A stretch of DNA of 64,000 bases from a virus. Of the stretch, positions 4,802 to 28,613 are shown in pieces. The stretch spans positions 4,944 through 68,943 of IMG/VR virus record IMGVR_UViG_3300042880_000321. One strand, 5' to 3'. A program made the position numbers and the translations under genes. How positions within the stretch are numbered: the first letter of the stretch is position 1; each line of letters begins with the position of its first letter. The notes under the pieces were generated by a model. That model did no database searches and had not been told where the DNA came from. It saw only the letters and a program-made list of their open reading frames with translations.

Positions 4802-6005
4802 CTACCTCGTAGCTCCGGTTTCGATGTTGGTTGAAGGCGTTTGGCCCGGCTCCGCCGGGCCTGTGCTTTATGAAGAAAAAGACATCACCGCTTCTATTTC
4901 TGCTTGGAACGCTCGTCCGATTACCATCGGACACCCTGAAGATAATTCAGGTAACAAGGTTTCCGGATGCACGCCCGAGATGCTAGATAGTCGATCTATC
5001 GGCATGGTACTTAATACTAAGTACAATCGGAAGACCAAAAAGCTACAAGCCGAGGCTTGGTTCGATGCCGAGAGACTCAGCAAGGTCAAAGGGGCCGAAA
5101 TAGTGCATTCTGCACTCTTGGCCAATACCAAGCTCGAAGTCAGCACCGGCTTGTTTGTCGAGGCTTTAATGGCTAATGGCAACTACAACGGCAAGGATTA
5201 CATCGCCAAGGCCACAGCATTCAAGCCAGATCACCTAGCGATCATTCTTGAAGGTGAAGGGGCTTGTTCGCTCAAAGACGGAGCCGGACTACTGGTCAAC
5301 AAGTCGGCCAAGCCGACTAGGCCAGAGAGGCTACCGGTATTGATCGACAACGCCAAGTCGTTGATGAATCAAGTACATGAAGTCCGCGAAGCCGTTGTCG
5401 AAGCCTACGAAATGTACAATCCTGAAGGTAATTCGACCTGGGCATATATCGAAGATATCTACAACGATTCCGTTGTTTTTTCGCTTTCGACGAACGGTGA
5501 ATCTGAATACTTCAAACAAAATTATGAAATTGAAAATGAATCAGTTAAACTAATAGGAGAAAAGGTCAAGGTGACCCGCAAGGTATCCTATTCCGTTCAG
5601 AACCAAAAAGAGAAGATGGAAACACAAGAAACCCCAGCCGCTCCAGCGGCACCTGTCGCAGAAGCCAAGCCGGTGAAGCTAGTGTGCAATTCGGTTGCCG
5701 AGCTACTCGAACATGCCGCACCTTCCGTTAAGAACCAAATCGATGATGCAATGGCAGTAGTCGCGAAGAGTCGCGAAGAACTGATTAGCAAGATCATCGC
5801 TAACAGCAAGGACACTTTCACTTCCGACGAACTCGCATCTTTGCCTACGGCACAGTTGCAAAAGTTCGCAAGTGTTATCAGTTCTGCCGTAGCTCCAGCC
5901 GCTCCTGCTAAAGCACCTGTCTACGCAGGTGAAGCGTTTGTCGGCAACCAAGCTGCTCCGGCCAAGGTCGAAGTAAGCCCCCTTGTTCCACTCTCCACAT
6001 TCTAA
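4740..6005 (+). CDS. capsid maturation protease/scaffold (DUF2213-like)
   Basis: PITIGHP, EVSTG, PDHLAI and GACSLKDGAG motifs; Ala/Pro-rich scaffold-like C-terminus. Confidence 0.8.
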   Translation: MEKLIANLSNKVQEKTLQGRSYLVAPVSMLVEGVWPGSAGPVLYEEKDITASISAWNARPITIGHPEDNSGNKVSGCTPEMLDSRSIGMVLNTKYNRKTKKLQAEAWFDAERLSKVKGAEIVHSALLANTKLEVSTGLFVEALMANGNYNGKDYIAKATAFKPDHLAIILEGEGACSLKDGAGLLVNKSAKPTRPERLPVLIDNAKSLMNQVHEVREAVVEAYEMYNPEGNSTWAYIEDIYNDSVVFSLSTNGESEYFKQNYEIENESVKLIGEKVKVTRKVSYSVQNQKEKMETQETPAAPAAPVAEAKPVKLVCNSVAELLEHAAPSVKNQIDDAMAVVAKSREELISKIIANSKDTFTSDELASLPTAQLQKFASVISSAVAPAAPAKAPVYAGEAFVGNQAAPAKVEVSPLVPLSTF

Positions 6006-7751: not shown

Positions 7752-9050
7752 ATGGCCGATACAATTCGAATCAGACGGGGCACTACAAGTGCCTGGAATG
7801 CCGCTAATCCAGTGCTCGCCTTAGGCGAGCAGGGGTATGATACGACGACTAAGCAGTATAAAGTCGGTGACGGTACGACGGCTTGGACTTCGTTGGCGTA
7901 TTCTACGCCTGGGCATATCGCAGCGGGTACGGTGCTGGCGAATCCTAGCGGGGTGCTTGCGAATCCTGTCGGGGTGGATGCGGCTGGGATGAGGACGTTG
8001 ATAGGTGCTGATGCCGTTGTAAAACGCAGACCAGTCAATCAATGGAAGTCAGTCTCATCAATCGGTAATTCTTTGTTTGAGAACAGCCTGGGTTTGTCAC
8101 GCACAGCTATCGGATTCCTTGGAGTTCCGATGCACAAAAACTTCGGTGTAGGTGGTGCTGCAACCTCAGCATTGGCGGCACAAGCGGCTAACGTACCTAC
8201 TGGCACAGCATGCTTGGTGATGGAAGGGACTAATGACGCAGCAGCAGGAGTTACAGTTTCGACGCACATCGCAAACATGAAAGCTGCTGTGGCTATTTTA
8301 CTTTCTCGTGGAGTGACACCGATCGTAATCGCATCACCACCAAGAGACACGACAACAGCCTTAATAGATTCTTACTCAGTTGCTGAACGCGTGTGGTGTA
8401 TCGACGAGGGATTGTACTTTTGCGATCCGTGGGGAAAGCTGACAGATACTGATGGTACTTGGACTAGTGGTGCGTCTAGCGATGGAGATCATCCAACAAA
8501 TGCAGCCTACTATACCGCAGGAAAAATGATTGCGGATCAGTTGTTAGGTATCGAGTCAAACTATTGGGTTCCTCGAACAAATTCAAACGTACTGTCGAAT
8601 CCACTTTGTCTAACTGATGGGGATACAAACAACAGGCCAGACGGTTGGGCTGGTTTTTCTCTGCCAACATTTTCAGCACTTGCTACAGGTACGCATCCGA
8701 TTCGAGGAAATAGAGCTTTAGCCGTAATAAGCCAATCAGCAACGATGGAGTTATACCACCAAGCATCGGTTTCACCTGGTGTGCTTCAAGTTGGTGACGA
8801 GATTTTAATAACAGGTCTGATGTCACTTGCAAACATGAGCAACTGCCTGATGCGAGTTTATAGTCAAGAAAATTCATTTTTTCTGACACAAGCCAATCAA
8901 CCGACTGTTATAGGACTACAGTCGAGATTTGTGGTCACAGGTAATGTTCAGGTGTGGATCGAAGCTAGAAGTCTTGCTGGCGGGGCGTTTACCTGCGATC
9001 TTACGTTTGGTTGCTTTTCGATTTTGAACTTGACACGAAATAGGTATTAG
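7752..9050 (+). CDS. fibre/spike protein: Mtd_N-like attachment domain plus SGNH (GDSL-type) esterase plus C-terminal beta domain
   Basis: N-terminus IRIRRGTTSAWNAANPVLALGEQGYDTTTKQYKVGDGTTAWTSLAY; SGNH blocks IGNSL, GVGG, EGTND and DGDHP. Confidence 0.8.
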   Translation: MADTIRIRRGTTSAWNAANPVLALGEQGYDTTTKQYKVGDGTTAWTSLAYSTPGHIAAGTVLANPSGVLANPVGVDAAGMRTLIGADAVVKRRPVNQWKSVSSIGNSLFENSLGLSRTAIGFLGVPMHKNFGVGGAATSALAAQAANVPTGTACLVMEGTNDAAAGVTVSTHIANMKAAVAILLSRGVTPIVIASPPRDTTTALIDSYSVAERVWCIDEGLYFCDPWGKLTDTDGTWTSGASSDGDHPTNAAYYTAGKMIADQLLGIESNYWVPRTNSNVLSNPLCLTDGDTNNRPDGWAGFSLPTFSALATGTHPIRGNRALAVISQSATMELYHQASVSPGVLQVGDEILITGLMSLANMSNCLMRVYSQENSFFLTQANQPTVIGLQSRFVVTGNVQVWIEARSLAGGAFTCDLTFGCFSILNLTRNRY

Positions 9051-15002: not shown

Positions 15003-15284
15003 GTGGCACATGAAACAGGCTGTCCAAGTGTCCAAATCCTCAAGGAGTATCTTACTTACGAGGATCTGGAAAAATGGATGGCCTATTTTTATAGACGGAA
15101 GCAGGAACGCGAAAAGCAGGACTGGTACTTAGCGTCTATTGCTCACATAGTAGCATGTACGATGGGTCAGAGTAAAACGAAGATCGAAGACCACTTACTG
15201 AAATTCAGCAATGAAACTCCAGCCCCTAACCCCGACGCCTCTAAGGCGATGTGGTTGAAGGCTCTAGGGATTAAAGAAATATGA
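15003..15284 (+). CDS. tail assembly chaperone frameshift extension (gpT-like)
   Basis: Open in the -1 frame from 14970; directly precedes the tape measure gene. Confidence 0.75.
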   Translation: MAHETGCPSVQILKEYLTYEDLEKWMAYFYRRKQEREKQDWYLASIAHIVACTMGQSKTKIEDHLLKFSNETPAPNPDASKAMWLKALGIKEI

Positions 15285-17596
15285 GCGGCCCATCTCGCGA
15301 ACTACCTCCATTAGTCGTAAAGATTACGGCGGATCCGTCTGTATATCTCAAGGCGTTAGATAAAATGGTCCGGGCTACGCAGAAAGCAGCGGCCCAGATA
15401 GAGAAGAGTTTGGGCAAGGCGGCTAAAGGCGGAGGTCCGGGCGGCCCTCCGCGAGGTCCAGGAGGCGGAGGTAAGTTAGGTTGGCGAACAGAGGTTAAAT
15501 GGCTCGGCAAGCACTTAGACGGCAGACGTAAGTTCGGTCAAGATTTATCTAAGATGATCGACAAACAGACCAGAGAGCAAGCCCAACAGCACTCCAAGAA
15601 CCTCGGAGACGAGATATCCCGCGAACTCAAAGCTCAGCGCAGTCGCAAACAGATATCCGATCAGCGTGCCGCTGAAGAACACCGGCAGCTCCGTCGCCAA
15701 CGGATGCGACAAGTAAGCCGTCTGAAGGAAAAGGGAGTTACCGGACGCAAGGCCCGCATGGCGGGCGGCGGGCGTATGGGTGCCATGATGCAGGGTCTAG
15801 ACGGCGGTAGTATGATGGGTGCCCGTGCTGATATGTACATGCATAAGCAGTCATTAGGCGGCCTTTTAGGCGGTGTGGCTAGCTTCCTGAAACCAGCAGC
15901 GGAGATGGAAACCTACGCCATAACAATCGGTCAATTTTCTAAGAATGCCGAAGAAGCTAAAGCCACCTTAGCTGAGATGCAGGAATTTGCATTGATATCT
16001 CCATACTCTATGGAATCCGTAGTCCAAGGCACATCTCTGATGATGCGATACGGCATGGCTGCTGGTGATGCTGTCAAGATGACTAAGATGCTGGGTGAGG
16101 TAGCCGGAGGCAATAGTGCCAAGATGGAACTGTTGGCTCTCGCAGTCGGCCAGACGACTTCTATGGGTAAGCTAATGGGGCAAGAACTCCGTCAGATGAC
16201 GGAGCACGGCTTCAATCCGCTACAAATTGCCGCCGAAGCGATGCTGGGACCGAACGCCGATCCTAAAGCCGTCAAAGCTAAGGTGCTGGAACTCAGCAAG
16301 CTGATGCGACAAGGAGCCATTGATGCGGGATTGGTTACAGCCGCATTGGAACTATCCACATCGAAAGGCGGTAAGTATGCCGGTCAGATGGCGAAACAAG
16401 CCAATAGCGTATCTGGATTAACTTCTCAGATTGTAGAATCCCTTAAAATAGCCGCTGGCGTAATTGGTAAGATTTTCGAAGAGGATACTAAGAAAGTATT
16501 GAGGACTGTTTTAGATCAGGTCGGTAAACTCATTAAATATCTACGCGCTCCGGAGAATATGGAATTTATTAAGGCATGGGGATACTTCGTCATTAAAGTA
16601 ATTGCCGCTATAGCTGCGTTTCACGCACTAGGATATGTTATAGCTAAGGTCAAATGGCTTTTCGGGTCATTGGTAATGGTGTTGCAATTGTTGCTGCCGT
16701 TATTCAATTTACTTAAATTTGCAATAATGGGAATAGCTAGAGCTGCTATCGGCCCTGTAGTAGCCTCATTCTTTACTATGTACGGGGCTATTGTTGCAAC
16801 AACTGTCGTTGCATTAGCATTAGGGGCGGCTCTCGCCTATGTAATGTATCATGCAAACGCAGACATCCAGAAATACAATGAAGAGCTAAAGAAATCCAAT
16901 GAACTAACAGATAAGTTATCCAAGCATCATGCATCAAAACACGTACAAACGATGCTTGAGATCCGCACCGAAAAAGATCCTGCCAAACGCAAGGAGCTAG
17001 CAGAGAATGCCTTGAAATCGGCCAAAATAGAACTACAAGGCAAGGAGAGCCAGATATCGCAACAAGAGCAGCTAGTAGCCAGCTTAGAGCCTACGATAGC
17101 GTCAGCATATCAAGGTGGACGTAAAGTATGGGAAGGAGAATCCGCTACTTTAGAGCAACTGAAACAACAGAGAGAAGCCCAGGCTAAACGAGTCGCAGAA
17201 CTACAAGGCATTGTATCACCAGCCGCCCCCGGTGCCGGAGGATTGGTGACCCCGGATGCCCCAGACTGGGCTAAAGACCCAGCTAGTGCCGCAGCACACT
17301 TCAAGTCGTTCCTTGGAGGAGGGGATGCCGAAGACGGCGATAACATGCCCAGTACACAATCTGCTTACCGTAGAGGATCAAGCGAGCACGCTCTAGCCCT
17401 ATACAACCACGATGCGATGAGTATAGGTGAATCTGCTGCTGCTCGCGAAGAAGCAGAGAAGAAGCAGAAGGAAAAAGAAAAGATCGATTTACTACAGCAA
17501 ATCGCAACTAACACTAAAATACAGGCTGGATTAAATTCAGTAGGTACGGTAGCCGGTGACATGGTCGCTGGTTTCCTGTCCGGAGGTAGAAAATGA
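15281..17596 (+). CDS. tape measure protein
   Basis: 771 aa, helical; tape-measure domain motif GKLMGQELRQMTEHGFNPL; hydrophobic middle region. Confidence 0.88.
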   Translation: MSGPSRELPPLVVKITADPSVYLKALDKMVRATQKAAAQIEKSLGKAAKGGGPGGPPRGPGGGGKLGWRTEVKWLGKHLDGRRKFGQDLSKMIDKQTREQAQQHSKNLGDEISRELKAQRSRKQISDQRAAEEHRQLRRQRMRQVSRLKEKGVTGRKARMAGGGRMGAMMQGLDGGSMMGARADMYMHKQSLGGLLGGVASFLKPAAEMETYAITIGQFSKNAEEAKATLAEMQEFALISPYSMESVVQGTSLMMRYGMAAGDAVKMTKMLGEVAGGNSAKMELLALAVGQTTSMGKLMGQELRQMTEHGFNPLQIAAEAMLGPNADPKAVKAKVLELSKLMRQGAIDAGLVTAALELSTSKGGKYAGQMAKQANSVSGLTSQIVESLKIAAGVIGKIFEEDTKKVLRTVLDQVGKLIKYLRAPENMEFIKAWGYFVIKVIAAIAAFHALGYVIAKVKWLFGSLVMVLQLLLPLFNLLKFAIMGIARAAIGPVVASFFTMYGAIVATTVVALALGAALAYVMYHANADIQKYNEELKKSNELTDKLSKHHASKHVQTMLEIRTEKDPAKRKELAENALKSAKIELQGKESQISQQEQLVASLEPTIASAYQGGRKVWEGESATLEQLKQQREAQAKRVAELQGIVSPAAPGAGGLVTPDAPDWAKDPASAAAHFKSFLGGGDAEDGDNMPSTQSAYRRGSSEHALALYNHDAMSIGESAAAREEAEKKQKEKEKIDLLQQIATNTKIQAGLNSVGTVAGDMVAGFLSGGRK

Positions 17597-18609
17597 CGAC
17601 AACCCCACTCCCAACAACGACGTTTCCGCCGTTGCCGTTTAATCCACTAATTACACCCAGAGTCGTAGGCCCGCTAGCCACTCGCTTCCAGCGAGACGAA
17701 GACGGCCACCGCACCTACGAAATCGACTGGCACGTACAGACGGCGTTATATGAGCATAATATAGCTCATATTCTAGCTAACTGGCCGTTGTTTGGAGTTG
17801 GGCATCCGTACCAATTATCGCCATTATGGCCAGAAAGCATCGGCGTAGATACCTGGGCGTTCTTGACGCCCACTCTCAACATCGCCCCGCATCCCGACGT
17901 AGCCGAGTATTCGAAATGTCGTGACTGGGTAGTCACGCAGGTGTGGACTACGAAGCATTCATGGCGGTGTAACGTATTCCCAGTGGAGAATCCCCTTCTG
18001 GAGCCTGTTCATTTAACAGGTGATTTCGTTCACGAAACCCGAGAGATGACGGTAGACAAAGACGGTAAGCCGCTACGATTCCCGAACTTCGAGCCGATTA
18101 CCGGCCCTCTTACTGAGAATAGAATATCCTATCCTACGCTCAGTATTACATTCAACTCTGCCGGACTGCCTATCACAACGTACACCCTATTGATGAATAA
18201 CGTCAATGATGCGGTACTTTGGGGCTTACCTCCGCGATGCGTTCGGTTTGTGGATGCTAAGTGGGAACGAAAGGTGTACGGTCGCTGCGGCTACTATTTC
18301 ACAATCACCTACACATTTGAAATAAATCAAAACACATTCGACAATGAGATTCCGGCTCAAGGTTCTATGGAAAGGGTCAACTTGTCCGCTGACTATATGA
18401 ACCCAGAAAGTTTCATCCGAGCCAAGTCAAAAAGTGGAGAGAACATTTCTGTTCCGTTGGATATCAACGGAAGCCGCCTTGAAAAGATAGGTATGACTCC
18501 GGGCGGCGATCCTATCTGGAGATACCCGCAGCACATCCTTAAACCAAAAATCTACAAGGAAGGTAACCTACTTCTCCTTGGCATTCCATCGGATATTTCA
18601 AGTCTATAA
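17593..18609 (+). CDS. tail tip/hub protein (unassigned family)
   Basis: First gene after the tape measure; ATGA-coupled. Confidence 0.55.
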   Translation: MTTTPLPTTTFPPLPFNPLITPRVVGPLATRFQRDEDGHRTYEIDWHVQTALYEHNIAHILANWPLFGVGHPYQLSPLWPESIGVDTWAFLTPTLNIAPHPDVAEYSKCRDWVVTQVWTTKHSWRCNVFPVENPLLEPVHLTGDFVHETREMTVDKDGKPLRFPNFEPITGPLTENRISYPTLSITFNSAGLPITTYTLLMNNVNDAVLWGLPPRCVRFVDAKWERKVYGRCGYYFTITYTFEINQNTFDNEIPAQGSMERVNLSADYMNPESFIRAKSKSGENISVPLDINGSRLEKIGMTPGGDPIWRYPQHILKPKIYKEGNLLLLGIPSDISSL

Positions 18610-19088
18610 TGTCACATCATGAATCCGTCAATCCGTCTCAAATAGGTGCTTCCGGCGACCGGGCTACTTTCATCCTGAAAGCCGTTTACCAAGAATACGC
18701 CACCTCGCGGGCGATATCCGTCACACATGCTTACGACTTCGTAAACGAGGACGAGGAGTCTGCTTGGCAGACTGTACAGCGTATCAGTCCGTCGAAAGAA
18801 CAACCGATCAATTTAGGGCATCTAGAAGGAAAGTATCCTATACTGGTACTTTCCCACGACTTACCGAAGCTCGCTCCAAATACCCCGGATATCCTCAAAA
18901 ACGCACAGGAAGCCAACACCATCGTCCTCACCAACGCCGATGGCGTTGTTGTCGGACTGTTACGGGCAAAGCGGTCTACGGTAGTCGAATATCCATTTCC
19001 AGTATTCGCCAAGTCCACTACGGCGACCACCCTTTTAAGCATTACTGCGATCCCGGTGAAGCCGTATGAAAACATACCGACTAAGTGA
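18609..19088 (+). CDS. hypothetical tail-region protein
   Basis: Coupled ORF in the tail cluster. Confidence 0.6.
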   Translation: MSHHESVNPSQIGASGDRATFILKAVYQEYATSRAISVTHAYDFVNEDEESAWQTVQRISPSKEQPINLGHLEGKYPILVLSHDLPKLAPNTPDILKNAQEANTIVLTNADGVVVGLLRAKRSTVVEYPFPVFAKSTTATTLLSITAIPVKPYENIPTK

Positions 19089-21561
19089 AGCGGATCGCCT
19101 GCTATTAGAAAATTTACTTAGACAAGATGGCGCTGCGCCTCCTACTCGTCCACGCGGCGATAGCGAGATAGAGGTAGCGGTAGACGAGAACGAATACTGG
19201 GCAAAGCCGCCTGCTGGTTCCGGTATTCCGGGTGCCGTGTCTGTCGGAGGCACAGTGACGCCCTCCGGAGTCTATTGCGCCATCTACAAGCGGAGACTAG
19301 GCGAACCGAATCTAGTTCAGATGAAGTACCCGGACAATACTCCGGTACTTCGCCCCGTCTACAACTATTCTCCTGTCGGTGTTATGGATATGTCTCCCAT
19401 ATCCCAACACAACGACGGGACTTGGGTTGTAGGAGCTACTCCGGTACGCCCATCCCGCAACTGCGGCTGTTCGGGCTACGGAGTTTGGGTCGCCAACTCT
19501 AATTTGATTTGGGAATGGCCTACCGGTCAGTGCGGTGACGCTACGACTACTGCCGCACCCGGAACTACGGCAGCACCGTCTTCAACAACAACGACTACTA
19601 GCCTTCCTGTTCCTACGACGCCTAGTTCGTATTGCCAAGACTATCGGTGCATGCTGGTATGCGGCACACCGTCGCCGCCTACGGCGGCCCCTACGACCAC
19701 AGGAAGCGGAACAACCAGCGAAGCCCCTCCGACTACTACATTCGCTCCCGGATTGATCTACTACTTAGCGTCAGGAGCATCCTGTCCTGGTGGCTGTACC
19801 TGCTACGGTTTAGGAGATCCTTGTTGGGAAGAAGCGGCGGAAGTGTTATCTGTCTGCGGCGGAGTCATTACTACGCTTCCTCCGACTACCTGGAATCCGT
19901 CCGATACTGCCTGCCAGTGGGCGGTAACGGCTATCGGAACTATCCCGCCGCTCACGCGGCGATACGCCCATAAGATGCCGGATGAGGCATGGGCACTATG
20001 CGGCCCGACGCTCACATCCTACGGTGAGATCTATCCGCTCGGGTTCGATCAAGCCGGCTACCAGAAGCACAATAATCAAGATAAAGTAGGTATCTACCAA
20101 ACCGGTTACGTCTTGATGGCAGCGAAACACAGTGCCGTCACCGACAAGAAGCTAATCTACGCCATGTCCTATTCAGGACAAACGGCTAGTTGGTCAGGTA
20201 GCCCATACATCATCACAGATGCCGCCACCGGCACTTACCGAGTCTATTGGGAATCCACAGGCGAATCTTTACGGCCCATCGGGCACCATGTGCCTCCGGT
20301 ATGGCTACCCCAAAGCCCATCCGCCGACTACCTCAAAAGTGTTGGGATCACGCAAATCAATTCATCCGTCTACGCCTTTGACGCCAGCTTCGCAGGCGAA
20401 GGGCGATACGGCGATGAGGTATTAGCGGAAGGGTTCCTACAGACGCCGGTGCTTACTCAGCCGCAGTTAGCGAGACACGCTACCGTGTCGAGCCCAGGTA
20501 ATTGCGGCTTCGTGCGTCCTGATTTCTGTCCTACTGCCGCCGGTGAATGCTGGGTAGGTCCGTGTGCTCCCGGCGCTAACCACCTGACTCCTACCGATCA
20601 GATTTGTTTCCTAGATAAGTGGCCTAGAGGTACGACTACTGGCGGTCCTTACTTAAATCCATGCGTAGACGTAGACGGTAATATTTGCAACTGCCCTACG
20701 ACCTTCCCGCCCGCTGCTACGTCGGCGTGTCCGCCGACTACTTCCCTCGGGCCGGTGCCGTGTGCCGGTTACTGTGAGTACCTAAGTGACGGTATCCGAT
20801 GGAACTTGACGAAGCCGGGATGCTCTAGTGAGCTTTCGTGGTGTGGGTGCGCTCAGCCTAGCTGCGAAGTCGCAGCACCTAATTCTAAAACTTACACCCT
20901 GTGCTACGATACCAGGACACCGACTACCTCTGCCCCGACGTGCAAATGTTGCACGCCGACAACCACTATCGGTCCTACCTGCTCCCATTCGCTCTGTCAT
21001 TACGAAGTATCCGCAGGTAAATGGACGCTAGTTACGGCCAAAGGCACCTGTCCGCCTGAATGCCCTTGCCCTGAACCGGAAACCCTGTTACCGCCAATCC
21101 ACTCTTGTAGCAAACTAAAGCTGAGGTGCGGACCCGCACCAGATTACCGGGAAATCAAAGTCGATTTCATCGACTGGATAGAGGAAACCGACGCTAAGTC
21201 GCCTTTCTTCGGTAAGAAGAAAGCACGCGGGACCGTATTCTGGGCGACCAATGTGAAGTTGCTTGGCAAGACGGTAACTATGTACGATCATTGGTGTATC
21301 CTAGATTTACCTAGCGATGATCTAGTAAATTTCAGAATGATTGCATCGTGGGGAGTCACCGAATCTACAGCGTGTAACGCTGCCCCTGGCGATCCGACTC
21401 CGTTTCACTGGTCGCTAACTGACCGATGCTGTGACGCATCGCCAGAAGCAGCGGCGACATATGATGGAGGAAGTCCTGGTGACTCTATGATCGCCGGCCC
21501 AGACGGCGGTGCTCCTGATTCCGCTATGGACGGAGATAATATCAACGGGGGAAGCCCATGA
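19066..21561 (+). CDS. Cys-rich, Thr/Pro-rich (mucin-like) tail-region protein with C-terminal DGG repeats
   Basis: About 44 Cys by manual count, in repeated modules separated by TTT/PP linkers. Confidence 0.7.
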   Translation: MKTYRLSEADRLLLENLLRQDGAAPPTRPRGDSEIEVAVDENEYWAKPPAGSGIPGAVSVGGTVTPSGVYCAIYKRRLGEPNLVQMKYPDNTPVLRPVYNYSPVGVMDMSPISQHNDGTWVVGATPVRPSRNCGCSGYGVWVANSNLIWEWPTGQCGDATTTAAPGTTAAPSSTTTTTSLPVPTTPSSYCQDYRCMLVCGTPSPPTAAPTTTGSGTTSEAPPTTTFAPGLIYYLASGASCPGGCTCYGLGDPCWEEAAEVLSVCGGVITTLPPTTWNPSDTACQWAVTAIGTIPPLTRRYAHKMPDEAWALCGPTLTSYGEIYPLGFDQAGYQKHNNQDKVGIYQTGYVLMAAKHSAVTDKKLIYAMSYSGQTASWSGSPYIITDAATGTYRVYWESTGESLRPIGHHVPPVWLPQSPSADYLKSVGITQINSSVYAFDASFAGEGRYGDEVLAEGFLQTPVLTQPQLARHATVSSPGNCGFVRPDFCPTAAGECWVGPCAPGANHLTPTDQICFLDKWPRGTTTGGPYLNPCVDVDGNICNCPTTFPPAATSACPPTTSLGPVPCAGYCEYLSDGIRWNLTKPGCSSELSWCGCAQPSCEVAAPNSKTYTLCYDTRTPTTSAPTCKCCTPTTTIGPTCSHSLCHYEVSAGKWTLVTAKGTCPPECPCPEPETLLPPIHSCSKLKLRCGPAPDYREIKVDFIDWIEETDAKSPFFGKKKARGTVFWATNVKLLGKTVTMYDHWCILDLPSDDLVNFRMIASWGVTESTACNAAPGDPTPFHWSLTDRCCDASPEAAATYDGGSPGDSMIAGPDGGAPDSAMDGDNINGGSP

Positions 21562-22142
21562 GCACGAAGCGATGTTGCTGTGAATGCCCTCTAATAGCTA
21601 AACCGTGGAGACGGGCTAGCCTGAACTTCCTGGGAATGGATTTCGAAGTCGAATTTCCGGAAGAACCGAACGAGGCTTGCTGCCAGCAAGAGATTAGCGT
21701 TTGTAAGGATATCGGGCCGATGTTCATCGGCGATTGTTATTCGGGTCTGGATATCGCATACGGCTATTGGTATGAGGATATGTCTCCATATCTAGCCATT
21801 CCGCCAGGAACTCCTTGGTGTGATTGGCCTTTAGTTGTGGTGCCCAACACAGCGGTTGATTCCTGCTGTGGGTCTTGGAATTGGAGGGCTGAGCAATATT
21901 GGCGATGGCGGATTCGGTTTTGGGTATGGATTCAGGCTAGAGTTAAGTTCATTATTTGCTACTGCCGCACAGAAGACGGGAAACCGGGCTATCGAATGCG
22001 CATTGAGATCGATTGGAAAATGATACGGATAACCAACCGTTCTGAGCTACAGAAGATAAGATGGCGTAAGTACACTCGCGTTTGTTGCGAAGAATCTGGT
22101 GGCGGTGGCGGCACCACTACCGAAGCTCCTCCCCCTCCATAA
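21558..22142 (+). CDS. Cys/Trp-rich tail-region protein
   Basis: Starts RCCCEC; ATGA-coupled; ends GGGGGTTTEAPPPP. Confidence 0.65.
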   Translation: MSTKRCCCECPLIAKPWRRASLNFLGMDFEVEFPEEPNEACCQQEISVCKDIGPMFIGDCYSGLDIAYGYWYEDMSPYLAIPPGTPWCDWPLVVVPNTAVDSCCGSWNWRAEQYWRWRIRFWVWIQARVKFIICYCRTEDGKPGYRMRIEIDWKMIRITNRSELQKIRWRKYTRVCCEESGGGGGTTTEAPPPP

Positions 22143-22159
22143 AGCGTAGCAGAGTATTT

Positions 22160-23374
22160 ATGAGCTGTAGTGGTAATTGCCTTGCATATTGGGACGGTGT
22201 CGGGTGGTCGATAGAGCTAGGCACTGAATGCGATAGTCTCTGCCAGTGTTTTCCCTCCGGCACGCCGGAGATCGGCACCTATAGTTTTCCTTGTCTAAGC
22301 ACAGAGACGACGACACCGGCTCCTACGACTACACCGGCTCCCACGACGACGCCGGAGGCGACGACTACACCGGCTCCCACGACGACGCCGGAGGCGACGA
22401 CTACACCGGCTCCCACGACGACGCCGGAGGCGACGACTACACCGGCTCCTACGACGACGCCGGAGGCGACGACTACTGAGACTCCCACTACGACGCCGGA
22501 GGCGACGACTACTGAGACTCCCACTACGACGCCGGAGGCGACGACTACTGAGACTCCCACGACGACGGCTACGCCGACGACGACACCGGCTCCCACTACG
22601 ACCGAAGAGCCCTGGACGACTACTTCTACAACCACGACAACAAAACCCCCGACGACGCCGGAGGCGACGACTACTGAGACTCCTACTACCCAGCCACCGA
22701 CTACCCAGCCACCGACTACCCAGCCACCGACTACCCAGCCACCGACTACCCAGCCACCGACTACACCACCGGGCGGGACTACGACTTGTGAGCCGGGCTC
22801 ACAAGTCTGCGTAGCAGAACCACCAGAACCAGCATGGATCGATTTAAGCGGCGACTTTGTGCCGCCCGAACCTTTCCTATGGTGGCCGGTACTAAGTGGC
22901 CCTGCGGGTTGCACAACCCGACCGGCCTTTAGTCCTACGTTTGCTCCTGCGTGCATCGGGGATTGCCCAGAAATCCCATTAGTTCCTGGATGCTTAGACT
23001 CTCTACCCTACCAAGTAGAGAACTATTGTGACATAGAACAGACAAACACTTGTTTAGGTTTAAGTGATTTTTTCCGAGGGCATCGTTGGACGATCAACGG
23101 GTACTCAGGGAGAGGATCGACTGTCATCGGCGGCGAGGGCGGGGTCTGGGAGTCAGGCGTCATAGCCTTGACTCCTAACTGCGAGGAAGACGTAGGGGCT
23201 AATCCTATGGTTATCCGAGTATCGCGACCGGCACAAGAAATAATCCTGTCCACGGGTGAGAACTGCCACGATGTCTACGGCAACACACAAGGACCGGTCA
23301 AACTAGTATTACCCACCATCATACCCGTATGCGTCGTCCGCGATGGGACGACTTCAGGCCCATGTCCAGTCTAG
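22160..23374 (+). CDS. mucin-like protein: 6-Cys module, TTTPAP/TTTPEA/TTQPP repeats, Cys-rich C-terminal domain
   Basis: Likely start MSCSGNC at 22160; about 160 aa of Thr/Pro repeats. Confidence 0.75.
   Translation: MSCSGNCLAYWDGVGWSIELGTECDSLCQCFPSGTPEIGTYSFPCLSTETTTPAPTTTPAPTTTPEATTTPAPTTTPEATTTPAPTTTPEATTTPAPTTTPEATTTETPTTTPEATTTETPTTTPEATTTETPTTTATPTTTPAPTTTEEPWTTTSTTTTTKPPTTPEATTTETPTTQPPTTQPPTTQPPTTQPPTTQPPTTPPGGTTTCEPGSQVCVAEPPEPAWIDLSGDFVPPEPFLWWPVLSGPAGCTTRPAFSPTFAPACIGDCPEIPLVPGCLDSLPYQVENYCDIEQTNTCLGLSDFFRGHRWTINGYSGRGSTVIGGEGGVWESGVIALTPNCEEDVGANPMVIRVSRPAQEIILSTGENCHDVYGNTQGPVKLVLPTIIPVCVVRDGTTSGPCPV
22305..22790 (+). repeat. coding tandem repeat array (18-bp units, then 15-bp units)
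   Basis: ACGACTACACCGGCTCCC / ACGACGACGCCGGAGGCG units; CAGCCACCGACTACC five times from 22691. Confidence 0.95.
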
Positions 23375-23730
23375 ATGATTACGTTCGCGGTAAACTAGGA
23401 AACCGAGCTAGGGTATCCGAAGAGATTTATGTTGAGTCTCCGGCACCGGCTTCGCCGGTGATGGGGGAACTTGGGCCGGTGCTGTGGAGAGAGTTATTTC
23501 TGGCTGTGTTTACACAGCAGGAATTCGAGGCTTGGAAATCGCGCGTACCTCGTTACGGCTGTGCGTGCTCTAGCTTTTTAGGTGTTTGGCTAAAGTTAAA
23601 CCGGCCTACGTTTCCGTTACCTTTCTCTTTTAAGTGGGCATTAAAAAACGCGGTAAACCAGAAGCTCGGTCAGCGGATGCTGACCTTGGAAGCGGCACAA
23701 GAATACTGGTCAACCCAAACATTGACGTAG
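23362..23730 (+). CDS. divergent Erv1/ALR-like sulfhydryl oxidase
   Basis: GPVLWRELF ... PRYGCACSSF ... WALKNAVNQKLG..LTLEAAQEYW matches the Erv order GPxxWxxxH, CxxC..F, HNxVNxxLG. It has CxC instead of CxxC and both His are replaced. Confidence 0.6.
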   Translation: MSSLDDYVRGKLGNRARVSEEIYVESPAPASPVMGELGPVLWRELFLAVFTQQEFEAWKSRVPRYGCACSSFLGVWLKLNRPTFPLPFSFKWALKNAVNQKLGQRMLTLEAAQEYWSTQTLT

Positions 23731-23750
23731 GCTGGGACATTAGCTATACT
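23722..23750 (+). promoter_or_regulatory. sigma70-like promoter for the glycosyltransferase gene
   Basis: TTGACG-17 bp-TATACT, followed by AAGGA before the ATG at 23783. Confidence 0.75.
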
Positions 23751-23782
23751 GATCCTTTCTACTTCTACAACAAGGATAGCTT

Positions 23783-25807
23783 ATGCCTAAAATAACTTGC
23801 GCCATGGCCACATTCGACGATTTTCACGGATGTTGGGCAACGATACAGTCTCTACGTATGTATCAGGATATGGAAGATGTGGAGATTGTCGTGCTCGACA
23901 ACAATCCAAAAGGGCCACACGGCCAAGACCTACGGAATCTCGTTAACAATTCACAGAACGCTTCTGTTCCTATTCGTTACCACGAATTTGCAAATAGCGT
24001 CGGCACGTCGGCTACTCGGCACAAGTTGTTCGAATTGGCCGAATCTCCATTTGTGATTATCCTAGACTGCCACGTTCTCCTGAAAGCCGGTGCCATCGCC
24101 AAGATGAAGCAGTTCTGGGAGTCTGCGGACGCCGACATGCAAAAGAATCTCTTCACCGGGCCTCTGCTCATGGACTGTATGCAACACCATCAGACCCACT
24201 TCGAGTGCAAATGGCGTGCCGAAATGTGGGGGACGTGGACTGCTGCGTGGAGAAAAGAAGGAAAATATTGGATCGCCCAGGAAGCCGAAAACGGCACCAA
24301 AGTCCAAATGCGAGAACTCCTAACCGGTAAACTCGGTTTTGAGTTCAAGCATCCGTGGTCCGGTCACGAGCACGCAGCGAAGAAGCTCGGCTTCGAGTTG
24401 GCCGGTTGGGGTGACGATAATGATATCTTCGAGGTGCCGGCACAAGGGCTTGGTATGTTCGCTGCCGCGAAAGAACACTGGTTAGGGTTTAACCCACACC
24501 ATAAACACTTTGGAGGTGAGGAGTGTTACATCCACGAAAAGTACCGGCAAGCCGGTAGGAAGACCTATTGCCTACCTTGGATGGCATGGCAGCACCGATT
24601 CGGTCGCCCCGAGGGACCACGGTATCCGATTACCCGCGAAGGAAAGATGCGGAACTACGTGCTTGAGTTCCAAGAGCTAGGGCTTGACCTAGAGCCAATT
24701 CGGCACCACTTCATCGATGAGATCAAACTCAAGCCGGAGTTATGGGATAAGCTAATCGCTGATCCCATTAACTTTGACCCCTATTCTGGGTGGGCGGCCA
24801 ACACCGCCCCCGAAACCATGAAGCCAGTATTGAAGTCGAATTTCGGTATGCCGTTACCGTTAAACATCGACGATCTTAACAGCATGGCAGTTGAGATTTC
24901 CGCTAATAAGCGGGATCTAGAAAACCACTTCCAGAAGTTCTACGAATACGGCGGACTGTGCAGTTCGGCATTAGAAATCAGCAAGCGTCGTGAAACGACG
25001 ATGTGGCTGGCTGCTGCCTTGGTTCAGGGAGCCAAACGCTGTGATCGCACTAAGTGCGATAAGGAGAAGTGCGATAAGCAATGCCGGATGCCTCGGCTAG
25101 TGTCGTATCAAGCGGAGCGAGATACGCTCCTGCAATTGATCGCAGAAGCCGTCGAAGGCAAACTTCAGTACACGGATGTTGATAATCCAATCACCAATCC
25201 AGTGCCGAAGGTAGAAGGTAGGTTTGATTGTCTGTATATTCACTCCCGGCATACCTTCGCCGACTTGTCGGCGCAGTTGGCTGAATTCGGTCCCCGAATC
25301 GATAAGTACATCATGCTTAACGGTACTTCTGGTAGCGGAGGATCCGGCATCAAAGGCGAGGATGGAAAGACGCCATCGATGCTACATGCCATCAAGATGT
25401 TCGTCAAGACGAACCCAGAATGGTTTGTCGTCTATCATACGGAAGCCCAGTATGGTATGACGGTGCTGTCTAGGGTGCAAGAGGACCGTGGAACGGTCAT
25501 TACGCCTTGGCCGATGACGGATGATAACGGGGTTGCATGTGGTCCCGGCGCAGAGCTTAAAAAGATCCTAAAAACGATAGGCATCGAGTCTACTGCTGAT
25601 TGCGCCTGCAACCGACATGCGGCTAAGATGGACGCAGACGGGCCTGATCTATGCGAGAAAAACATAGAAGAAATCCTCGATACTTTGAAGAAGGAAGCTG
25701 ATAACCGGGGACTGGGAGCAGTCTATGTTAAACCATTCGTCAAGATGGCAGTCATGCGAGCTATTAAGAAAGCTCGCAAAAAGATTGCTTCCGGTGAGTG
25801 TGGTTAG
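23783..25807 (+). CDS. GT2-like glycosyltransferase fused to a degenerate SAM-methyltransferase-like domain and a C-terminal CxC domain
   Basis: EIVVLDN, IILDCHV and GF.P....FGGEE in the N-terminal half; FDCLYIHSRHT..L..QL...KYI resembles Methyltransf_24; C-terminus GPGAELKKIL..GI..DCAC. Confidence 0.75.
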   Translation: MPKITCAMATFDDFHGCWATIQSLRMYQDMEDVEIVVLDNNPKGPHGQDLRNLVNNSQNASVPIRYHEFANSVGTSATRHKLFELAESPFVIILDCHVLLKAGAIAKMKQFWESADADMQKNLFTGPLLMDCMQHHQTHFECKWRAEMWGTWTAAWRKEGKYWIAQEAENGTKVQMRELLTGKLGFEFKHPWSGHEHAAKKLGFELAGWGDDNDIFEVPAQGLGMFAAAKEHWLGFNPHHKHFGGEECYIHEKYRQAGRKTYCLPWMAWQHRFGRPEGPRYPITREGKMRNYVLEFQELGLDLEPIRHHFIDEIKLKPELWDKLIADPINFDPYSGWAANTAPETMKPVLKSNFGMPLPLNIDDLNSMAVEISANKRDLENHFQKFYEYGGLCSSALEISKRRETTMWLAAALVQGAKRCDRTKCDKEKCDKQCRMPRLVSYQAERDTLLQLIAEAVEGKLQYTDVDNPITNPVPKVEGRFDCLYIHSRHTFADLSAQLAEFGPRIDKYIMLNGTSGSGGSGIKGEDGKTPSMLHAIKMFVKTNPEWFVVYHTEAQYGMTVLSRVQEDRGTVITPWPMTDDNGVACGPGAELKKILKTIGIESTADCACNRHAAKMDADGPDLCEKNIEEILDTLKKEADNRGLGAVYVKPFVKMAVMRAIKKARKKIASGECG

Positions 25808-26334
25808 AGATCTTCTTTCTTATATCGGAGATCGAGCAGCAATTGCTGCTCATCTCCAAACTCAAACTGGTTGTCGTTACACAGTCGCCCGTAAACCGCA
25901 AACTCTTCTATCCTATCAATAGCTCGTAACGCGATCCCGTCGCTGACAACATCTCCGACGTTCCAACCGCGAATACGGCAGACTTCCGCCGAACTGATAT
26001 TGTAAGCATCTGCGATTACCGTAGGGTTATCCGCATCGATCAAATAGACCGGCTTGCCGGTCTTCATAAAAGACGCCTGGAACGGCATAGGAAACCCTCC
26101 GTAGGCTATCCCTACTACAACATCTATATCCTTTGCAATAGTGAATGTGAGTTCAAAAGGATGCACTTCGTACCGATTCCGTAAATGCCCTTTAGCTACG
26201 TCTTTCATTCCGGCTAAGTGATAGACGGTTTTGATCTTATCGGCGAACGGCAGCGAAGCAAAGGCCGCCGTCGTGGCGGCCACTTGCTGCTTGAACGGTA
26301 GATTGCAGATATTGCCGGTTAGCAGGATTTTCAC
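25804..26334 (-). CDS. hypothetical protein (possible degenerate SLOG/YspA-like N-terminus)
   Basis: MKILLTG start and GKPV; only a weak resemblance. Confidence 0.45.
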   Translation of the reverse strand: MKILLTGNICNLPFKQQVAATTAAFASLPFADKIKTVYHLAGMKDVAKGHLRNRYEVHPFELTFTIAKDIDVVVGIAYGGFPMPFQASFMKTGKPVYLIDADNPTVIADAYNISSAEVCRIRGWNVGDVVSDGIALRAIDRIEEFAVYGRLCNDNQFEFGDEQQLLLDLRYKKEDL

Positions 26335-26774
26335 TTGTCTAATCCCTTTAGCTTCCGGTATACAGCCATCTCTCCGGAGGTGAGACGACGAATATTAGTA
26401 GGCACGACTAGACTACTCGTAGTCCATGCGTCCTTGCCGTCCACGTAAATGCTAGGCTCCTCGCCTCGGTTGTACCCAGCGAAGTATCTACGATACCAAG
26501 TGCCGCAAGCTAATTGAACCATGACCGGTTCTCCGGTTACGAACTTCGGCTCCGGCCTAGCCGGATTCGGCCAGTCTTCCGGCTTCACTTCGTTGTGGAA
26601 CAACGTAGGAAGAACGTCATTGGATCGTTCCTTGCCGTCTTCGGTGTAGGTAATAGTAACTGACCTGGGAAATTCTGCGATTAGCGGATAACATACGCTT
26701 GGACCCCGCCTCTCAATTTCTCCCCACCCATACTGAGGACTCCAAACCTTATCCCCTACTTCAAATTTACTCAC
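26331..26774 (-). CDS. hypothetical phage protein
   Basis: FEVGDKVW-type start; coupled. Confidence 0.6.
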   Translation of the reverse strand: MSKFEVGDKVWSPQYGWGEIERRGPSVCYPLIAEFPRSVTITYTEDGKERSNDVLPTLFHNEVKPEDWPNPARPEPKFVTGEPVMVQLACGTWYRRYFAGYNRGEEPSIYVDGKDAWTTSSLVVPTNIRRLTSGEMAVYRKLKGLDK

Positions 26775-27508
26775 TTCATACCTCCTCGAAAAATAGAAGC
26801 CATCTCATAAATGCTTTTCATAACAGCACTATAGCCCGGTTTCACCGGGCCAGTGACCCGAGCTTCCGGAATTTCCCGATATTTCCAGACGCCTGCGTCA
26901 ATATGTCCGGATGAATGGTTGTCACCGGTAGCTTCCCAGTTGTAGATATAGCTAGGATACTTCTGTTGCTTAGGACCGCCGAAGCGGTCTTGTAGCCGTT
27001 GGAGGAAATGCGTATCGAAGTCCGCTCGCAGGGTATCTTGGTTCAGATACCCTCCGATCTCCTCTAAGGCATCAGTGCGGTACGCACTACTCGCCCAGAA
27101 GCGACCGCCGGATTGCTCTATCTGCATCCGTCCGCCCCAGGACGAGAACACCTCCTTCGGATACGACCACGGGTGATCCTTTAGGATCGCTGCGTGCTGG
27201 GAGAGATGGTCCGGTAGGTATCCGTCGTCATCGTCCATGACGCAGACGTAATCGTAGTGCAGCCCTACACTGTTGAAGCCTAGATCATACTTCGCCATCA
27301 AGGAGGGTGCTCGCATTGCCATAGGCTCGAAAAATACTGCCCTGCCCTTTACATCCATCATCGCTTTATCCGGCAGTGGATTCACCCGGTCGTCTACGAC
27401 GACCAAGGTAGCCGGGCCGTCGTAATCCTGATCGTAGAATGCCTGAATCAAGGATTCCAGCCATTCTTGGCGATGGTTGTAAACTGCCGTCAAACATAAG
27501 AAGCTCAT
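26771..27508 (-). CDS. GT2-family glycosyltransferase
   Basis: TAVYN, QDY, VVVDD, MDDDDGYLPDHL and IGGY motifs. Confidence 0.8.
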   Translation of the reverse strand: MSFLCLTAVYNHRQEWLESLIQAFYDQDYDGPATLVVVDDRVNPLPDKAMMDVKGRAVFFEPMAMRAPSLMAKYDLGFNSVGLHYDYVCVMDDDDGYLPDHLSQHAAILKDHPWSYPKEVFSSWGGRMQIEQSGGRFWASSAYRTDALEEIGGYLNQDTLRADFDTHFLQRLQDRFGGPKQQKYPSYIYNWEATGDNHSSGHIDAGVWKYREIPEARVTGPVKPGYSAVMKSIYEMASIFRGGMK

Positions 27509-27807
27509 AAATACTTTTCTTTCAATAGGGTCGCGTTGATGCTTTCCAGCAAGGTGCCGGTAGCCGGAACCTTGATGCCGAGTCCTTCAAACCCGTTCAC
27601 ATCGAGCGGATTGAAGATTGGTTCGTTGCGAGATGCCCGTAGCCGGTAGACTTCTACCCTAGCCTTGCTGCCGGGTATCGTGTCTGTGGGTTCCTGGTAC
27701 AGAGGCAGCTCCTCGCTGCCGATTGTACCGAACACTAGCAAGGCTTCCGCCTTGCTGGCTGGGATATGCCGTTGGTGTGTAGGTAGGAAATCGTGATGCG
27801 TTGGCAT
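27505..27807 (-). CDS. hypothetical protein of a family I associate with Planctomycetota
   Basis: PTDTIPGSKARVEVYRLRASRNEPIFNPLD pattern, recognised from memory. Confidence 0.55.
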   Translation of the reverse strand: MPTHHDFLPTHQRHIPASKAEALLVFGTIGSEELPLYQEPTDTIPGSKARVEVYRLRASRNEPIFNPLDVNGFEGLGIKVPATGTLLESINATLLKEKYL

Positions 27808-28391
27808 TAGAGTTCGATTACATTTCCTTTGGAGAATTCAGGGAAGTGGGTTACCATGATTATCTGGAATCCGGTTTCTTGGCACAAGGACTCTAGTAGA
27901 TTTACTAATCTAGGCCGGTGCCCGGCAGATAGGAACCTAAAGGGCTCATCCAAGATGAGCACTTTGCTCGGTTGCGGTACGCTTAGGATTAGCGTAGCTA
28001 ATCGCAGAGCGAATGATATCACATCTACTACTCCACCGCCACAGGCGGTGAGTGGGTCGTATTCGTTACCGGCAGCGTCATTAAGAACGCAACGGGCTTC
28101 GGTTTGTTCTCGCTTCTGCTCGAACACCAAAGCAAACCGGTAGCGGTTCTCGGGGAATACGGCTTCCAGACAGCGGGTAACCAAGGCAGATATGGAGTGC
28201 TGGCACTCCTGTTGGCAGGCGACCGCTATATCCGTTACCTTTGATCCTACGGCGGCCAGAGCGGTCTTCCGCTCTTGTAGCTGAAAGATATCGGTTTCGG
28301 TATCCTGCATCTTCTGGAGCAGGGCGTCTCTGGCCGCTACCTTAGTCGCCAAGGCGACTGCTTCGGTTTTGAGGTAGTGTTCGAGTTCCAT
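27807..28391 (-). CDS. SbcC/Rad50-like ATPase, C-terminal half
   Basis: Signature-like CGGG, Walker B LILDEPF and His-loop MVTH; N-terminal coiled coil. Confidence 0.85.
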   Translation of the reverse strand: MELEHYLKTEAVALATKVAARDALLQKMQDTETDIFQLQERKTALAAVGSKVTDIAVACQQECQHSISALVTRCLEAVFPENRYRFALVFEQKREQTEARCVLNDAAGNEYDPLTACGGGVVDVISFALRLATLILSVPQPSKVLILDEPFRFLSAGHRPRLVNLLESLCQETGFQIIMVTHFPEFSKGNVIEL

Positions 28392-28613
28392 CTAGACGAT
28401 AGCCCGGTATTCGTTTCGGAGGCGGACTATTTCCTCACTCAGTTGATCTAGCTCCTTCTCGGCCTTGCCGATTTCGGCTACAGCCTCTTCAAGAGACTGA
28501 ATGCCAAATTCGGTGTCTAGTCGCTCCATGAGCGACTTCTGCCTACCGATAATCTGGTCCCGTTCTGACTTGAGCTGTTCCAGCTCCTTCTTGACTTTAT
28601 CCAGGCTTTCCAC
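28392..28613 (-). CDS. small coiled-coil protein
   Basis: Heptad-rich 73 aa; abuts the Rad50 C-half gene. Confidence 0.65.
   Translation of the reverse strand: MESLDKVKKELEQLKSERDQIIGRQKSLMERLDTEFGIQSLEEAVAEIGKAEKELDQLSEEIVRLRNEYRAIV

Follow-up and report, generated by a model that had tools for sequence, protein, structure and literature searches.

We report that an uncultured tailed phage encodes a small protein with the predicted fold of the Erv/ALR sulfhydryl oxidases, next to genes for unusually cysteine-rich proteins. The gene lies at positions 23362..23730 (plus strand, stop codon included) of a 64,000-nucleotide stretch of DNA, here called the window, which covers positions 4,944 to 68,943 of IMG/VR record IMGVR_UViG_3300042880_000321; its product, P0001, has 122 residues. 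Our reading, to which we assign a probability of roughly 60%, is that P0001 is a divergent member of the Erv/ALR superfamily acting as a dedicated phage thiol-disulfide catalyst for cysteine-rich tail proteins. Erv/ALR enzymes are the textbook disulfide-forming catalysts of eukaryotes and giant viruses, and the literature that we searched holds no description of phage Erv members, of a flavin-side CxC active site or of a link to tail proteins. The window makes up most of a 68,943-base record rated 98% complete. The phage is tailed, as an earlier reading made from the sequence alone had assumed when it pointed out the Erv/ALR-like gene: its record encodes a tape-measure protein, a portal and an HK97-type capsid protein, besides a terminase-like protein whose match is sub-threshold.

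Predicted Erv fold of P0001

The open reading frame (ORF) of P0001 can be extended to 23329..23730 (plus strand) from an alternative in-frame ATG at 23329. With the start at 23362, which overlaps the end of the upstream 430-residue ORF by 13 nucleotides, both the 122-residue length and the first residues are the same as in five close database relatives; these have no Pfam domain, and the two that are named are both called 'hypothetical protein'. The translation contains, in the order that the sequence-only reading had described, all the expected motifs. Helix 1 carries GPVLWRELF (residues 38-46; 23473..23499, plus strand), with F46 at the position of the Erv helix-1 histidine. The motif GCACSSF (residues 66-72) contains the CAC triplet C67-A68-C69, encoded by TGT GCG TGC at 23560..23568 (plus strand), and these two cysteines are the only ones in the protein. 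In helix 4, KNAVN (K95-N99; 23644..23658, plus strand) takes the place of the HNxVN of Erv enzymes, K95 standing where the adenine-stacking histidine would be; the surrounding residues 92-103 read WALKNAVNQKLG, with KNAVNQKLG in the helix 4 motif region. Residues 109-116, LEAAQEYW, supply the terminal YW. Thus W42, N96, V98 and N99 of the helix-1 and helix-4 Erv motifs are present and both histidines are replaced.

Taken singly, P0001 matched no Pfam domain (E ≤ 1) and no PHROG family; a phmmer search of PDB sequences gave one chance match only (E 1), and the ESM Atlas entry for the sequence provided no usable feature match. The curated Pfam model for Erv enzymes, PF04777, has a cut-off of 27.6 bits, which P0001 fails and which P0060, a relative with both histidines, passes with 37.4 bits. 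Because the curated model misses P0001, we argued its homology through the profile of its own family. A phmmer search against 1.84 billion representative sequences found 140 relatives at E ≤ 1e-3, and 101 of them were aligned with P0001 and 4 close relatives to give 106 sequences; 12 representatives of 292-439 residues and 27 others, mostly of about 150-240 residues, were excluded. The resulting profile matched human and rat ALR with E values of 3e-13 to 1.5e-12, pB119L of African swine fever virus (ASFV) with 7e-12, and also Erv1, AtErv1 and Erv2. Within the alignment, 84 of the 106 sequences matched PF04777 at E ≤ 1, the best at 5e-12. A profile built only from sequences with the Phe and Lys replacements of P0001 (F/K) reached ALR at E 6e-4 and matched the profile of the relatives with both histidines (H/H) at 99.9% and E 1.6e-33.

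The AlphaFold2 model made from the single sequence was poor, with a predicted local distance difference test (pLDDT) score of 42.7. The alignment-based model had a mean pLDDT of 79.1 and exceeded 90 over most of residues 41-120 (block values from residue 41 onward of 96, 96, 73, 92, 97, 95, 93 and 93). Its predicted helices (32-48, 52-61, 69-79, 88-102 and 109-117) form a four-helix bundle with a short fifth helix. When this model was searched with Foldseek, the top 23 matches were all Erv/ALR chains (probability 0.96-1.00), and the top matches in BFVD were sulfhydryl oxidases of giant viruses (E 7e-4). VIA-align gave a Z score of 10.8 for ASFV pB119L (3gwl_B; root-mean-square deviation 2.3 Å over 86 residues) and 8.6-9.2 for Erv1, ALR and Erv2, the next unrelated chain scoring 3.6. 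The fold of P0001, as modelled, is the Erv bundle on which the sequence-only reading had made its claim depend, and we regard the protein as an Erv-fold homologue with near certainty. A complex prediction with two copies of residues 30-122 and two molecules of flavin adenine dinucleotide (FAD) scored 0.59, 0.63 and 0.54, one unrelated control scoring 0.42, and speaks neither for nor against the dimer that P0001 may form.

A CxC active site and a coupled histidine swap

In the family profile, the CAC of P0001 aligns, with a gap of one residue, with the FAD-proximal CxxC of ALR. The sequence-only reading had treated this spacing as an oddity of the gene. The CAC is indeed there, but it is not peculiar to P0001: the spacing is CxC in 99 of the 106 sequences, CxxC in 3 and CxxxC in 4, so CxC is a defining trait of the whole family. 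Conservation is high around the putative active site, with C69 and W42 present in all 106 sequences, C67 in 105, V98 in 102 and N99 in 97. A CxC can work as a redox-active disulfide elsewhere in the Erv pathway: Erv2p has CGC in its tail, and Mia40 has CPC. Several H/H relatives likewise read CPC; in Erv2p and Mia40, however, the motif is a shuttle or substrate-facing site, whereas in the phage family it corresponds to the flavin-proximal pair of the Erv bundle. The CPC active site was read in four members (L066, L080, L092 and L093) of an H/H subgroup of 231-238 residues, which also includes L071, L085, L094, L095 and L100.

We surveyed the two histidine positions across the alignment, a check that the sequence-only reading had itself proposed. 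The two positions covary: His/His occurs in 74 sequences, Phe/Lys in 29, Phe/Arg in 2 and Tyr/His in 1, and the mixed pairs His/Lys and Phe/His are absent. In a tree built without the two histidine columns, whose 84 columns give little resolution at deeper forks, a single branch separates all 31 sequences with F/K or F/R from the others, so that one change is enough; its support is 92 in the Shimodaira-Hasegawa-like approximate likelihood ratio test (SH-aLRT). Within this clade F46, K/R95, N99 and K101 are fixed (31/31 each) and K91 nearly so (30/31). Three further positions distinguish it from the H/H sequences: position 91 is Lys against Thr, Ser or Gly; position 96 is Ser in 22 of 31 against Asn in 60 of 74; and position 104 is His or Gln against Lys or Arg. 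W42, Y/F65, C67, C69, V98, N99 and K101 are kept in both clades, and the H/H majority retains the full Erv signature except for CxC. Both histidines are therefore absent from P0001, as had been noticed before, but the absence is a clade-wide, coupled replacement by Phe and Lys/Arg (31/106, SH-aLRT 92) and not decay. In the Erv enzymes covered by the available text of PMC3616962, the helix-4 histidine touches the helix-1 histidine and the paired imidazoles stack on the FAD adenine. Since the two residues contact each other and stack jointly on the adenine in that account, a coupled swap is understandable.

The residues on the isoalloxazine side of the flavin (W42, Y65, C67 and C69) are retained in P0001, and FAD-contact residues on the adenine and phosphate sides are altered. 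In the F/K clade the nucleotide end of the cofactor pocket appears from these patterns to be remodelled rather than lost. Because the isoalloxazine end is kept and the adenine and phosphate end was rebuilt and then fixed across a deep clade, the sequences argue for a ligand pocket that is altered yet probably still selected. We would give the binding of a flavin in this clade an even chance. P0001 may be either of the things that the sequence-only reading had put forward, an altered-chemistry oxidase or a flavin-free relay.

Cysteine-rich partners, gene order and distribution

We surveyed the upstream neighbours of the Erv-like gene in 100 related loci (L001-L016, L018-L021 and L028-L107), in which the H/H loci are the best 80 of at least 499 matches and are biased to one abundant lineage. 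ORFs were called simply, as the longest ORF from the first start codon; this overlooked a number of upstream ORFs and makes our counts of cysteine-rich neighbours conservative. At least 1300 bases of upstream sequence were available in 91 loci, and 85 of these have a same-strand ORF directly upstream. This ORF contains at least 4% Cys in 68 of the 91 and is then typically 460-490 residues long with 34-45 cysteines. By comparison, only 16 of 471 other ORFs of at least 150 residues (3.4%) reach 4%, the median being 1.2%. Because many loci are near-copies, we clustered the Erv-like proteins at 60% identity. A cysteine-rich neighbour was present in 18 of the 27 resulting lineages (12/12 F/K and 6/15 H/H, one of these H/H clusters comprising 52 loci), a frequency with a binomial tail of 1e-20 at the background rate. 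The ends of the cysteine-rich gene and the Erv-like gene touch or overlap. The link to cysteine-rich upstream proteins that the sequence-only reading had suspected in this one phage thus appears as a conserved gene order.

The window itself contains three cysteine-rich ORFs upstream of the Erv-like gene, all on the plus strand, and their composition bears out the earlier description. The first (19066..21561), the third gene past the tape measure, encodes 831 residues with 44 cysteines (5.3%) and Thr/Pro-rich stretches and has no Pfam or PHROG family. The second (21558..22142) encodes 194 residues with 15 cysteines (7.7%) and an N-terminal CCCEC cluster. The third (22082..23374), directly 5' of the Erv-like gene, encodes 430 residues with 18 cysteines, a Thr/Pro-rich repeat linker and a cysteine-rich C-terminal domain (residues 240-428). 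Tandem DNA repeats at 22307..22764 (plus strand), of a 36-nucleotide unit repeated 8.2 times and a 15-nucleotide unit repeated 5.3 times, encode its mucin-like TTTPEATTTPAP and TTQPP linkers. A minus-strand ORF of 225 residues at 22279-22956 is probably a mere shadow of these repeats.

The second and third ORFs correspond to one protein elsewhere. In L010 and L011 the partner is a single protein of 362 residues, whose first half resembles the 194-residue ORF of the window (58% identity) and whose second half, in L010, resembles residues 240-428 of the 430-residue ORF (52% identity). It is encoded at 4504-5592 in L010; at 21558-23374 in the window and at 136-1973 in L001 there are instead two overlapping ORFs in different frames, and in both of these records Thr/Pro-rich repeat linkers separate the two conserved halves. 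The two-ORF form of the partner may reflect a genuine split, programmed frameshifting or an assembly feature common to both records. Across 17 diverse H/H-type partners (median identity 21%), Cys is the majority residue in 35 columns; 14 of these reach a conservation of 90% or more, and outside them only the start Met does. Such a pattern, with cysteines alone conserved, marks a disulfide or metal scaffold. For ten partners taken from other loci there was no Pfam match at E ≤ 0.01 (one chance-level row, DUF6259, had E 0.096) and no PHROG family.

The Erv-like gene ends a block of tail genes. This block is marked by the tape-measure gene (15281..17596, plus strand; TMP_3, no cysteines), which is followed by ORFs of 338 and 159 residues, the three cysteine-rich ORFs, the Erv-like gene and a gene for a glycosyltransferase family 2 (GT2) protein. 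The Erv-like gene and its cysteine-rich partner also lie downstream of a tape-measure gene in L041; in L063 and L065, an ORF considered as a possible tape-measure gene had no match. In a scan of 18500-28500, promoter-like sites were fewer than in shuffled sequences and terminator-like sites were within about 1 standard deviation of the shuffle mean, none of them on the plus strand in the stretches that separate the Erv-like gene from its partner and from the GT2 gene.

The sequence-only reading had considered Erv enzymes to be characteristic of eukaryotes and their large viruses, which proved too narrow: at least 499 phage-like IMG/VR contigs carry the H/H form. The F/K pattern was found in 16 IMG/VR loci and 4 loci from cellular genomes, all 4 of the latter in Pirellulaceae or Pirellula records, and one of these, L019, shares a cluster (at least 60% identity) with two viral contigs, L007 and L008. 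When P0001 and an H/H member, P0043, were searched by tblastn against 50,697 GenBank phage records, no match was obtained at E ≤ 1e-3. Among 301 genomes sampled from the phylum, the family profile picked out the query genome alone, and among 201 from the family of G001 it picked out 2. Such sporadic occurrence in Pirellulaceae chromosomes is expected for prophage cargo. In the loci examined the CxC Erv-like family is phage-borne, and P0001 belongs to a monophyletic subclade that occurs in Pirellulaceae prophages. From the Pirellulaceae loci of these F/K relatives we infer that the host of the window phage is a member of the Pirellulaceae. The available text of PMC10598087 describes PF04777 as scattered in few bacterial groups, Pirellula among them. 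One contig labelled GVMAG (giant-virus metagenome bin; L089) encodes a 92-residue H/H-type relative and no cysteine-rich neighbour.

Downstream of the Erv-like gene, after a gap of 52 bases, the GT2 gene (23783..25807, plus strand) encodes 674 residues with the GT2 domain at residues 18-118. Its C-terminal part, for which no family was found, contains a CAC (residues 607-609; 25601-25609) followed by NRHAAKMD, with three more cysteines in the last 90 residues. The sequence-only reading had seen in this CAC a possible partner of the Erv-like protein; the gene adjoins the Erv-like gene only in L001 and L002, two near-identical contigs. A 245-residue protein at 26771..27508 (minus strand) also matched GT2, but weakly and below threshold (E 0.0014). 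Glycosyltransferase-like sequences also occur within the family. In sixteen longer relatives the Erv-like domain is followed by 200-250 further residues. One fusion type, A5, has an invariant D220-x-D222, and its profile weakly matches glycogenin-2 (E 1.1e-3) and the pneumococcal glycosyltransferase family 8 (GT8) structure 5gvv (E 0.049); P0060 matches Pfam GT8 below the cut-off, at E 0.0033. The likeness of a second type, A6, to A5 ends about 40 residues past the Erv domain, and its C-terminal domain has no PDB relative by sequence. The GT8-like fusions, the GT2 gene of the window and the Thr-rich repeats of the partner together suggest that disulfide formation and O-glycosylation of a tail protein may go together, as judged from weak matches.

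Several observations concern other parts of these loci. Longer members of the family (P0023, P0031 and the A5 and A6 alignments; for example L009 5839-7065 and L012 3400-4614) open with the motif CxC..G.C.RH.V.KT.HL..LC ahead of the Erv-like domain; P0001 lacks this motif, which might act as a shuttle cysteine pair or bind a metal. In H/H loci, the gene after the Erv-like gene matched a metallophosphoesterase in 5 of the 6 scanned and an integrase in the sixth. The calcineurin-like metallophosphoesterase was above the Pfam cut-off in L041 (6098-7246) and L060 (6161-7258) and matched weakly (E 0.004-0.007) in L065 (6158-7171), L073 (6203-7132) and L075 (6257-7132). In the window, just past the capsid gene, a 432-residue protein (7752-9050) combines Mtd_N, the N-terminus of a major tropism determinant (E 3.6e-14), with a GDSL/SGNH lipase-acylhydrolase domain (E 8e-13).

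Weighing a proposed thiol-disulfide catalyst for tail proteins

In the mechanism that we propose, C67 and C69 would be joined in a strained, redox-active disulfide where the bundle opens. Within the reducing cytoplasm of the host, cysteine pairs of nascent tail proteins would give up their electrons to this disulfide; the CxC would hand them on to a bound flavin, and the flavin to oxygen or another acceptor. In the F/K subclade the planar His-His platform on the FAD adenine would be replaced by Phe46 and Lys95, with accompanying changes at K91, S/N96 and H/Q104. That a thiol-disulfide activity of P0001 would be directed at the cysteine-rich partner seems probable to us.

Compared with Erv1, ALR and Erv2, P0001 shares the predicted helical bundle (Z 8.6-9.2) and the motif order, with G-x-x-x-W in helix 1, a Cys pair opening helix 3, x-N-x-V-N-x-K-L-G in helix 4 and a terminal Trp. 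It differs in having CxC instead of CxxC and Phe and Lys instead of the two adenine-stacking histidines, in lacking both the CX16C structural disulfide and the shuttle cysteine pair, and in being encoded in the tail-gene block of a tailed phage. Since the curated Pfam model, CxxC and the His pair all fail, P0001 is not an ordinary PF04777 member. Closest in the proposed way of working are the stand-alone viral oxidases of the pB119L type, which, like P0001, are small single Erv domains and include its best structural match. A role in virion morphogenesis is given for them in the available text of PMC10598087. These oxidases of large DNA viruses, unlike P0001, have eukaryotic hosts and keep CxxC and both histidines, whereas P0001 would work in a bacterium, inferred to be one of the Pirellulaceae, and is tied to one cysteine-rich partner gene. 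The proposed job appears feasible in a bacterial cytoplasm because, according to the available part of PMC5471842, disulfide-bonded proteins can be made in the E. coli cytoplasm with the CyDisCo system, in which Erv1p is expressed there. By analogy, the phage module would do in nature what CyDisCo does by design; CyDisCo also supplies a disulfide isomerase, whereas no thioredoxin-fold gene (PF00085, PF00462) was found in the virus record.

A number of findings weigh against a dedicated oxidase of this kind. Nowhere in the virus record does the PF04777 model give a match at E ≤ 10, and of 28 F/K members it reaches only 9 at E ≤ 1, the best at 0.0046. Judged by the yeast Erv1 FAD contacts listed in the available text of PMC4721541, seven contact positions are altered in P0001: R92 to P39, the helix-1 His to F46, F137 to L73, H162 to K95, K171 to Q104, F174 to L107 and R182 to Y115. 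At three of them (P39, L73 and Q104) P0001 departs from that list beyond its own clade. P0001 has no second, 'shuttle' cysteine pair, the record has no match to the models for thioredoxin (PF00085) or glutaredoxin (PF00462), and the literature that we searched contained no flavin-binding or activity data for members of the CxC family. The gene pairing is not universal, because 9 of the 15 H/H lineages lack a cysteine-rich upstream neighbour. These exceptions are mostly the CPC-type proteins of 231-238 residues beside an ordinary protein of 423-438 residues (0.7-1.9% Cys; 1294 residues in L092), and the rest are a group downstream of a 1914-residue Cys-free ORF and one contig from a giant-virus bin. 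The partners, which match no known family, are called tail proteins by gene position only, and their cysteines may bind metals instead of forming disulfides.

The main rival is that the Erv fold of P0001 has become a flavin-free pseudo-enzyme, an assembly chaperone or a minor tail-tip part that would bind the cysteine-rich protein, perhaps through mixed disulfides at the CxC, and would not turn over. The change of the adenine-stacking His pair and of several phosphate- and adenine-contact residues would fit this alternative, as would the failure of the Pfam model, the presence of two cysteines only in a record where thioredoxin and glutaredoxin models found no redox partner, and the place of the gene at the end of the tail-gene block, overlapping the end of its partner. 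However, the replacements are fixed across a deep clade (F46 and K/R95 in 31/31, K91 in 30/31), the invariance of W42, V98, N99 and K101 suggests that a ligand pocket is still under selection, and the H/H majority has kept the full Erv signature apart from CxC. We consider the pseudo-enzyme unlikely, and prefer a thiol-disulfide catalyst.

Among the lesser rivals, P0001 could be a redox enzyme with another target, either host cytoplasmic thiols and proteins, in takeover or counter-defence, or the neighbouring glycosyltransferases. The nine H/H lineages without a cysteine-rich upstream gene point in this direction, and so do the fusions to a GT8-like domain with an invariant DxD and the GT2 gene that comes next in the window. 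Against it, the cysteine-rich pairing holds in all 12 F/K lineages, that of the window included, with gene ends touching or overlapping, and the Erv-like gene lies within the late structural block and not among early genes, which makes another target improbable. We consider it very improbable that the CxC and the partner's Cys clusters bind zinc or an iron-sulfur cluster as metal centres of the tail tip: the CCCEC at the partner's N-terminus and the CxC..GxCxRH..HLC of longer members do resemble metal ligands, and a lambda tail-tip protein reportedly holds an iron-sulfur cluster, but 34-45 cysteines in about 470 residues are far more than metal sites need, and in the alignment the CxC falls exactly where a disulfide-making enzyme family has its flavin-proximal redox pair.

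If P0001 is a thiol-disulfide catalyst for its cysteine-rich neighbours, it would show a route by which a bacterial virus could obtain disulfide-rich virion parts in a reducing cytoplasm, and a natural, minimal counterpart of the engineered cytoplasmic disulfide systems. The family would offer enzymology two natural variants of the Erv site, CxC for CxxC and Phe/Lys for His/His, and the tail proteins with 34-45 cysteines would be a new class of candidate receptor-binding structures. More speculatively, planctomycete and other bacterial tailed phages might carry a self-contained oxidative-folding module of a CxC Erv oxidase and a disulfide-knotted tail-tip protein, joined in some lineages by glycosyltransferases. 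Such a module might build an 'extracellular-style', possibly O-glycosylated receptor-binding organelle inside a reducing cytoplasm, the F/K clade having rebuilt the adenine end of its pocket, maybe for another flavin or acceptor. The phage family may also bear on the origin of the Erv enzymes of eukaryotes and giant viruses.

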